Shown in pieces: positions 21,807-23,024 of a stretch of DNA of 64,000 nt (positions are counted from its first letter, which is position 1; every line of letters begins with the position of its first letter). The notes under the pieces are model-generated. The model made no database searches, had not been told where the DNA came from, and was given only the letters and a program-made list of their open reading frames with translations. The position numbers and the translations under genes are program-made. The DNA lies in NCBI GenBank assembly GCA_012295275.1, contig CM022673.1:18538001-18602000 (forward strand), read 5' to 3'. The DNA comes from Chrysomallon squamiferum. Taxonomy: Eukaryota > Animalia > Mollusca.

Positions 21807-23024
21807 CTAGCAAATACGGCCATTGCAGCACATGTTGAATCTTGCATCATAGCCTTGTGTTCCACAACATGCAGGACGTAGTCCACTTTTGGAGACAACG
21901 TTTCCCCCGCAGCACATGTTGAATGTTGCATCATAACCTCGTGTTCCACAACATGCAGGACGTAGTCCACTTTTGGAGACAACGTTTCCCCCGCAGCACA
22001 TGTTGAATGTTGCATCATAACCTCGTGTTCCACAACATGCAGGACGTAGTCCACTTTTGGAGACAACGTTTCCCCCGCAGCACATGTTGAATGTTGGATT
22101 GTAGCTTCTATAGCCGCATACAGCTGTATTTCAAAATATAATGACTTTCACATATTTTTATGACTACTATCTGCCCCTCTCTCTCTCTCTCTCTCTCTCT
22201 CTCTCTCTCTCTCTCTCTCTCTCTCTCTCTCTCTCTCTCTCTCTCTCTCTCTCTCTCTCTCTCTCTCTCCGTCTATATATGTGTGTATATATATAGACGG
22301 AGAGAGAGAGAGAGAGAGAGAGAGAGAGAGAGGTACCTTGAAATCATAGAACAATATCAGTGTAGTGTGCACGTCATCAACTTGGCTACAGAGTTTGAGC
22401 GTAGTACTTCTACAATATGTACCATACTAAAGCAGAAGCAGTAGATAAAGGCTGTAACACCAGCCACAGGCGTTAAAAGAATAGGGTGGTTTTGGGGGCT
22501 GTAATGGATTAATGGTATTTCAGTTGGGAAAACTGATTTTGTATACGAGCTAACTGAGTTAGGGGTTCTGTCACGGAACGAATTAAACTCGTGAATCTAG
22601 GTAGCACTGTGTGTGGGTGTGGGTGTGGGTGTGTGTGTGTTATCTGTCGATCTATGCACTTACCCGATTCCTCTGTACCTAAATCGCTAATATTAAAACA
22701 ATTACCTGGGAATGTTCAAATTGTATGTAGGCTGTGTATTTGTGTAATCAAAGCTATGCTTTATGCTTTTTCTATGTCAATCTACCTGTTATACATAAAT
22801 ATACATGTATCTACAGATCTATACTATTACAATTACAATCGCTAATATTAAACCAGTCACTTCAAAGTGTTCAAAATGTATTTATGGTGTGTATTTGTGT
22901 AATCAAAGTTATACTTTGTAAGAAAATTACCTTTGGAAAAAACCCACGCCGATGCACCCCTTGGCTGAATGCATGTGATTATTAATACAGCGACACAAAA
23001 AACCAATGGAGAAATATTCTTCAT
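21807..23024 (-). CDS. Galaxin-like secreted Cys-rich peptide, copy C (3 repeats, 136 aa); coding exons 22931-23024 and 21807-22123
   Basis: MKNISPLVFCVAVLIITCIQPRGASAWVFSK|AVCGYRSYNPTFNM[CCGGNVVSKSGLRPACCGTRGYDATFNM]x2 CCGGNVVSKSGLRPACCGTQGYDARFNMCCNGRIC*. Canonical GT-AG phase-1 intron, with intact leader exons, TATA box and polyA signal. Confidence 0.9.
21861..22096. repeat. Coding minisatellite: 84-bp unit x 2.8, identical units
   Basis: Units start at 21861, 21945 and 22029, with no mismatches seen by eye. Confidence 0.95.
22177..22332. repeat. (CT)n then (GA)n microsatellites in the intron of copy C
   Basis: Directly visible. Confidence 0.95.
22333..22609 (+). mobile_element. Tigger/pogo (Tc1-mariner superfamily) deletion derivative in the intron of copy C
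   Basis: LEIIEQYQCSVHVINLATEFERSTSTICTILKQKQ*IKAVTPATGVK is a CENP-B/psq HTH of Tigger-type transposase. It is fused to a Tigger-like terminus ..GGAACGAATTAAACTCGT..CACTG and is absent from the other paralogues' introns. Confidence 0.75.

Follow-up and report, generated by a model that had tools for sequence, protein, structure and literature searches.

The cluster of cysteine-rich repeat genes described here raises the question of how such genes gain and lose whole repeat units, and of what an added unit would do to the protein. Five copies of a repeat exon (A, C, D, E, and G) lie on the minus strand of the window (the whole 64-kb stretch of DNA that was analysed), and three of the seven gene copies (A, C, and E) are intact (Table 1). 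The gene plan comprises a 94-nt exon for an N-terminus that is hydrophobic and signal-like, then a phase-1 GT-AG intron, and finally a repeat exon, which measures 65 + 84n nt from the AG acceptor to the TAG stop codon (n = 1 in D, n = 2 in A and E, n = 3 in C). The exon lengths given in an earlier note (149 nt in D, 233 nt in A and E, 317 nt in C, and 317 + 52 nt in G) are exact, although the "exact 84-nt steps" that it drew from them hold for A, C, D, and E only; in G (369 nt), one step is of 52 nt. Each 84-nt step does correspond to one 28-aa module with four Cys residues, the two CC pairs of the module being invariant in 11 of 11 units. An even Cys count with preserved terminal caps, also claimed, is found in A, C, and E (12, 16, and 12 Cys residues in exon 2; 4n + 4), but not in D and G, which are frameshifted as assembled. 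The window as a whole is built of 6–20 kb segmental duplicates with ~70–90% identity, each containing one gene copy.

Table 1. Positions in the 64-kb window of the repeat genes, their remnants, and the parts of gene C.
Feature	Positions	Strand	Remarks
Paralogue A, intact, 2 units, 108 aa	970–1525	−	exon 1 at 1432–1525
A exon 2, 233 nt	970–1202	−	AG acceptor to TAG
Remnant B, putative 5′UTR mini-exon fused to part of last unit and C-cap	11865–11959	−	
C coding exon 2, 317 nt: N-cap Cys, three 28-aa galaxin-like units, CC-x4-C cap, TAG	21807–22123	−	
C unit 3, 84 nt; 3 differences from units 1/2, two altering residues	21831–21914	−	
C perfectly periodic tract, 156 consecutive matches at lag 84	21857–22096	−	
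C unit 2, 84 nt	21915–21998	−	
C unit 1, 84 nt, CC-first register	21999–22082	−	identical to unit 2
C intron, 807 nt, GT..AG, phase 1, with (GA)n microsatellites	22124–22930	−	RNA contig joins across
C coding exon 1, 94 nt: predicted signal peptide and first mature residues	22931–23024	−	
Paralogue D, 1 unit	28072–28548	−	
D exon 2, 149 nt	28072–28220	−	AG acceptor to TAG
Paralogue E, intact, 2 units, 108 aa	37950–38579	−	
E exon 2, 233 nt	37950–38182	−	AG acceptor to TAG
Remnant F, broken signal exon	45537–45630	−	GC donor
Paralogue G, 3 units and out-of-frame 52-nt duplication	58451–59382	−	
G exon 2, 369 nt	58451–58819	−	AG acceptor to TAG
G 52-nt tandem duplication in exon 2, 1 mismatch	58695–58798	−	2-nt microhomology at joint

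The translated repeat exons belong to a known family, which went unrecognised in the earlier note. Exon 2 of C matches Pfam PF24748 (Galaxin_repeat) at 88.5 bits and that of A at 66 bits (cut-off, 28), and the CC pairs, alternately 13 and 11 residues apart, lie within the spacing of 10–15 residues used as a criterion for galaxin-like proteins (PMC12419799). The RXRR motif, which defines galaxin sensu stricto (PMC6824150), is absent from A, C, and E, which are thus not galaxin sensu stricto on this criterion. A signal peptide is predicted from a hydropathy scan together with likeness to the N-terminus of P0014, the best match (Gigantopelta aegis LOC121381542, XP_041366803.1; 76% identity over 103 aa), a match that suggests a gastropod source for the DNA. 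The full-length products are of 108 aa (A and E) and 136 aa (C), and the mature proteins of all three (82–110 aa) have a pI of 8.9–9.3; the positive charge that serves as a criterion for EsGal-type antimicrobial galaxins was found in them (net +7.7 to +9.7 at pH 7). We regard the cluster as one of short cysrichin-type galaxin-like genes, the proteins of which are likely secreted.

Further homologues were retrieved from jellyfish, corals, a tubeworm, Owenia, and a unionid mussel, and the ESM Atlas returned only galaxin-repeat clusters, at 0.82–0.83, which serves as a lead only. The strict order of cap, units, and cap is shown by 12 of the 167 homologues fetched, which have one unit (one protein), two (two), three (six), or four (three). 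Two of the homologues, P0016 and P0004, share 97% identity, and one has exactly one whole unit more than the other; P0004, P0016, and P0015 are near-identical with two, three, and four units, respectively, an accordion in another lineage. Two long Owenia fusiformis proteins (P0027 and P0068) have the same 28-aa repeat at the C-terminus, next to other repeats (Trp/Cys) that are presumably thrombospondin-like.

By repeat geometry, the closest characterised protein is the cysrichin of Hyriopsis cumingii, which has 163 aa, four units with a 28-residue period, terminal Cys residues, and a pI of 8.15, is expressed in mantle, and gives a shell phenotype on RNAi (PMC10045328). Shared with the window genes are a predicted signal peptide of 26 aa, basic character, the 28-residue period, Cys at both termini, CC spacings of 13 and 11 by that paper's residue numbers, a C-terminal end of four residues plus one beyond the last CC, and the motifs PACCGT and SGL, a likeness that is based on published residue numbers and motifs rather than on aligned full sequence. 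The window genes differ in having two or three units (108 or 136 aa) rather than four (163 aa); moreover, cysrichin was described as a single cDNA, its function was tested, and the available part of the paper reports neither a cluster nor variation in unit number (PMC10045328). The proteins named "cysrichin-A to -E" elsewhere are namesakes that the accessible text does not tie to this cysrichin type (bioRxiv 2022.09.07.507049). Gigantopelta P0014 shares with the window genes the signal-peptide end, both caps, and the lack of a propeptide, but has four units and a gene model with a long extra N-terminus, and is uncharacterised.

More distant likenesses are to galaxin sensu stricto, galaxin-like proteins, and sponge calcarins, which are likewise secreted, with a di-Cys every 10–15 residues, single flanking Cys residues, a predicted hairpin ladder, and tandem genes; for galaxin-like proteins, single Cys residues up- and downstream, as well as tandem genes, are described in PMC12419799. 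Galaxin sensu stricto, however, is scleractinian, acidic (pI 4.5), and 292–298 aa long with an RXRR site (PMC2726143), compared with the basic products of 82–110 aa here, and calcarins have 10–23 di-Cys and no clear sequence repeat in their available descriptions, compared with 5–7 di-Cys and a near-perfect DNA repeat. In the squid Euprymna scolopes, ten galaxins (EsGal1–10) differ in repeat number between paralogues (PMC12773714); they resemble the window genes in being cationic, with tandem di-Cys repeats and unequal repeat numbers, but are expressed in symbiotic organs and are antibacterial as peptides, the resemblance being by description and not by sequence. The protein type and its varying number of repeats are on record from mussels, corals, and squid, and the caps and the tandem arrangement of the genes have likewise been published. 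No description of unit-number turnover in such a cluster was found in the galaxin and cysrichin literature, as surveyed mostly by title.

Within the window, self-similarity of the C repeat exon peaks only at lags of 84 nt (0.87) and 168 nt (0.80), with a next-highest value of 0.36, and its periodicity is hence not due to chance. A half-unit step of 42 nt was rejected, as the exon has no such periodicity. The units of C, described in the earlier note as identical, are so for units 1 and 2, but unit 3 differs from these at 3/84 positions; the units of A and of E have diverged as stated (11/84 and 13/84 differences, respectively). A tree of flanking, non-repeat sequence (443 columns after filtering by hand) joins A with G (support 95) and C with D (support 97) and leaves E apart, so that the unit counts of these groups (2/3, 3/1, and 2) imply at least three changes in unit number. 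The extra unit differs from its neighbour at 0/84 positions in C and at 2/84 in G, and the units of the two genes have different diagnostic residues; separate gains in C and G, with a loss in D, are favoured on account of these near-copies and residues. The single unit of D starts like a first unit and ends like a last unit, as a crossover loss would leave it. The 84-nt register, the 156-nt perfect tract, and the minimum of three changes together support the proposal that misaligned recombination or slippage has added and removed whole units. The tree of individual 84-nt units that had been suggested as a check was built, and its support (32–76) is too weak to order events.

Homogenisation, proposed alongside, is likely present, but seems to extend more widely than a single exon, given that units are nearly as alike across genes as within them. 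Unit 1 of C differs at only 2/84 positions from the first unit of A and likewise from that of G, and synonymous divergence of units between genes (pS 0.068) compares with 0.218 for exon 1 and with a flank p of 0.134. Distinct synonymous alleles number four, against ~16 expected from two separately evolving ancestral units (P 0.0004) or ~8 from one (P 0.10). This deficit, together with unit similarity above that of the flanks, indicates conversion among paralogues with moderate support, in a test that hinges on how many ancestral units are assumed and on the hand-filtered flank alignment. Two units of the same gene differ at slightly fewer positions (5.5/84) than two units of different genes (7.3/84; permutation p 0.04); where a unit stands in the array accounts for their similarity as well as the gene does (p 0.02). 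No signal of selection was found among the units: nonsynonymous and synonymous alleles number 22 and 4, against 62 and 22 sites (p = 0.30; pN/pS ~1.4, broken copies included), and changes outside the Cys residues look unconstrained.

Gene C is supported by RNA. A contig from RNA run X8 matches 22067–22125 with 0 differences and continues into exon 1 of C, to which its loose end has 0/30 mismatches (2–7 for the other paralogues). Because this contig joins exon 1 directly to exon 2, C is spliced as modelled, and a middle exon for a propeptide (RR/RXRR), as is present in many homologues, is excluded. A single 114-nt piece in RNA run X9 has 3 differences relative to C and stems from another paralogue or allele. 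Contig boundaries in X8 at 21939–22002 coincide exactly with the points where the D sequence would join or leave that of C; there is a hint of a D-like one-unit transcript in this run.

The number of units in C is less firmly fixed by the reads. Contig depths in X8 over head, shared, and unit-junction words (10.5 : 20.5 : 10.7) are low and nearer to the 1:2:1 expected of two units than to the 1:3:2 of the assembled three, although contig depth cannot rank the parts of a gene; the third unit and 3′UTR of C were not recovered in X8, and falling 3′ coverage would therefore account for the depths equally well. In the four of nine DNA runs used (X1–X4), contigs break inside the repeat and cannot count identical units, no contig bridges the array, and none of the 6 joints listed is of 84, 168, or 52 nt. 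The identical extra unit of C, and perhaps the 52-nt duplication of G and the 1-nt loss of D, might be an artefact of assembly or consensus, leaving as real the older paralogues and their difference of one versus two versus three units. The identity of units 1 and 2 over 156 nt, the RNA depths that suit two units, and the unbridged array with no 52-nt go-back joint among those listed all point that way; yet the same contigs are unable to count identical units, and the first unit of C is only 2/84 from those of A and G, so that zero differences are not extreme (P ~0.009 at 3% divergence). A periodic tract of 240 nt is short for long-read assembly. Variation in unit number also stands without C, since G has three distinct units and D has one, and we consider an artefact of this kind unlikely. 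That the third unit of C is polymorphic or an assembly expansion, the latter being a refuting case named in the earlier note, remains a hint.

Over 21150–22170, runs X1–X4 also yielded variants unlike the window copies, with joints that skip 208 and 230 nt and have other letters between. The peak summed depth over the exon in these runs is 21–45 times that of a unique flank contig, which is not a copy number; with the variants, it gives a hint of more paralogues elsewhere.

The remaining copies are broken to different degrees. Exon 1 of D is 93 nt, and the resulting frameshift leaves a 13-aa product as assembled; in addition, Tyr replaces the N-cap Cys, and the C-cap has an extra Cys. In G, the units are all distinct (2, 5, and 7 differences), and the 52-nt duplication shifts the frame, so that the product is 84 aa long and contains 5 Cys residues beyond residue 31. 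The frameshifts of D and G could be assembly errors. Remnant B is devoid of exon 1 and of most of exon 2, and copy F retains a putative UTR mini-exon at about 45850–45893 (minus strand), with no repeat exon within 2.5 kb. A second, partial copy of 3′UTR-like sequence lies at 57617–57773, ~680 nt downstream of that of G. Elsewhere in the window, a ~440-nt element is present at 3594–4033, 17979–18423, and 63244–63663 in both orientations with ~88% identity, and is possibly a small mobile element. Two overlapping open frames at 8104–8714 (minus strand) have a weak DUF4371 match (E 0.045) and look like fragments of a hAT/Buster-type transposase.

For the protein, AlphaFold2 with a 64-sequence alignment gave a model (pLDDT 96.5, pTM 0.76) of 12 four-residue strands in pairs, repeating every 13–15 residues with no linkers. 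In published AlphaFold hairpins of galaxin-like proteins, the first Cys of a pair bonds the second Cys of the preceding pair, and the disulfide backbone of galaxins is continuous (PMC12419799). Because the hairpins of our model are likewise unbroken, and given this published ladder (PMC12419799), the units are likely to lengthen one continuous rod rather than to form independent modules. The 4n + 4 Cys count would fit a ladder whose ends are closed by the caps for any n, and each added unit would therefore likely bring two hairpins and two disulfides. No convincing solved relative emerged from the PDB by sequence or from Foldseek, nor from VIA, in which the only match was granulin 6cku (Z 2.4, at noise level; rmsd 3.8, 48 aligned). 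The granulin fold consists of stacked beta-hairpins stitched by di-cysteines; with no match in sequence, the likeness is an analogy only. The lack of a structural match does not show that the fold is new.

This predicted continuity bears on the proposal in the earlier note that repeat number could tune peptide valency, and on a reading in which each 28-aa module would bind a ligand independently and alleles with one to four modules would segregate adaptively. Values of n from 1 to 4 do recur across phyla with the caps kept, some near-identical homologues differ by whole units, and a two-unit C transcript may be present in X8. However, the hairpin stack is modelled, and the ladder published (PMC12419799), as continuous; two of the five length variants (the copy with n = 1 and one of those with n = 3) are broken in the window; and there is no selection signal. 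Independent modules under such selection are thus not supported, and we judge them very improbable. We think it most likely that the differences in length reflect tolerated turnover in a birth-and-death cluster rather than a tuning of valency.

The function of the proteins can be approached by analogy. A matrix role in mantle or shell, as for cysrichin, seems to us about evenly balanced between likely and unlikely; galaxin-labelled genes appear in peltospirid shell proteomes, with highest expression in mantle, although these are not linked by sequence to the window genes (supplement of PMC11871041). Because homologues occur in a jellyfish without a skeleton (Rhopilema, P0031), such a role would not be general. 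Instead, the proteins might act as cationic epithelial peptides that kill microbes or control symbionts, as do squid EsGal1/2, with repeat number and residue changes diversifying their activity. The basic mature pI of 8.9–9.3, the pN/pS of ~1.4 among units, and the presence of close relatives in a symbiont-hosting vent snail and tubeworm would suit this role, as would the clustering, since birth-and-death clusters are typical of defence genes. Single squid galaxin repeats inhibit bacteria at 50–300 µM, and their repeat number varies among 10 paralogues (PMC12773714), but these galaxins are likened to the window genes by description and not by sequence. Moreover, the excess of pN is not significant (p 0.30) and counts in two broken genes, the galaxin of Riftia is transcribed in the body wall (PMC2175520), and the closest characterised match by repeat geometry is a shell-matrix protein. 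We therefore regard an antimicrobial role as possible but doubtful.

The account that we prefer, and hold to be probable as a whole, combines turnover and homogenisation of 84-nt units with lengthening of a rod and a matrix role. Misaligned recombination or slippage would add or remove whole 84-nt units, and the paralogues would be homogenised, both of which are likely. As 84 nt is the sole homology register, in-register slips should preserve the frame and the 4n + 4 Cys residues; off-register slips, such as that of 52 nt in G, would happen but disrupt the frame. From this, we infer that the exact 84-nt steps of the intact genes reflect the homology register combined with a purifying filter. 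An added unit would prolong one disulfide-stitched beta-hairpin rod, most likely in the extracellular matrix of mantle or shell. A stronger version, in which the unit number of C segregates as two- and three-unit alleles and the cluster encodes concertedly evolving, length-variable rods that bind shell matrix or symbiotic bacteria according to their length, strikes us as quite unlikely; if true, it would provide a natural series of one to four units for solving a repeat fold that has no match in the PDB searches made.

The cluster is a case of ordinary tandem-repeat turnover, and is a tidy example rather than a new system. It gives a DNA-level view of how galaxin-like proteins change in length, by which the frame and the disulfide ladder survive in-register steps, and off-register steps destroy the gene. 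The proteins with two and three units that occur here naturally are small and well predicted, and no relative with a solved structure came out of the searches made, so that they would be convenient for settling the disulfide pattern of galaxins and for testing matrix versus antimicrobial roles.
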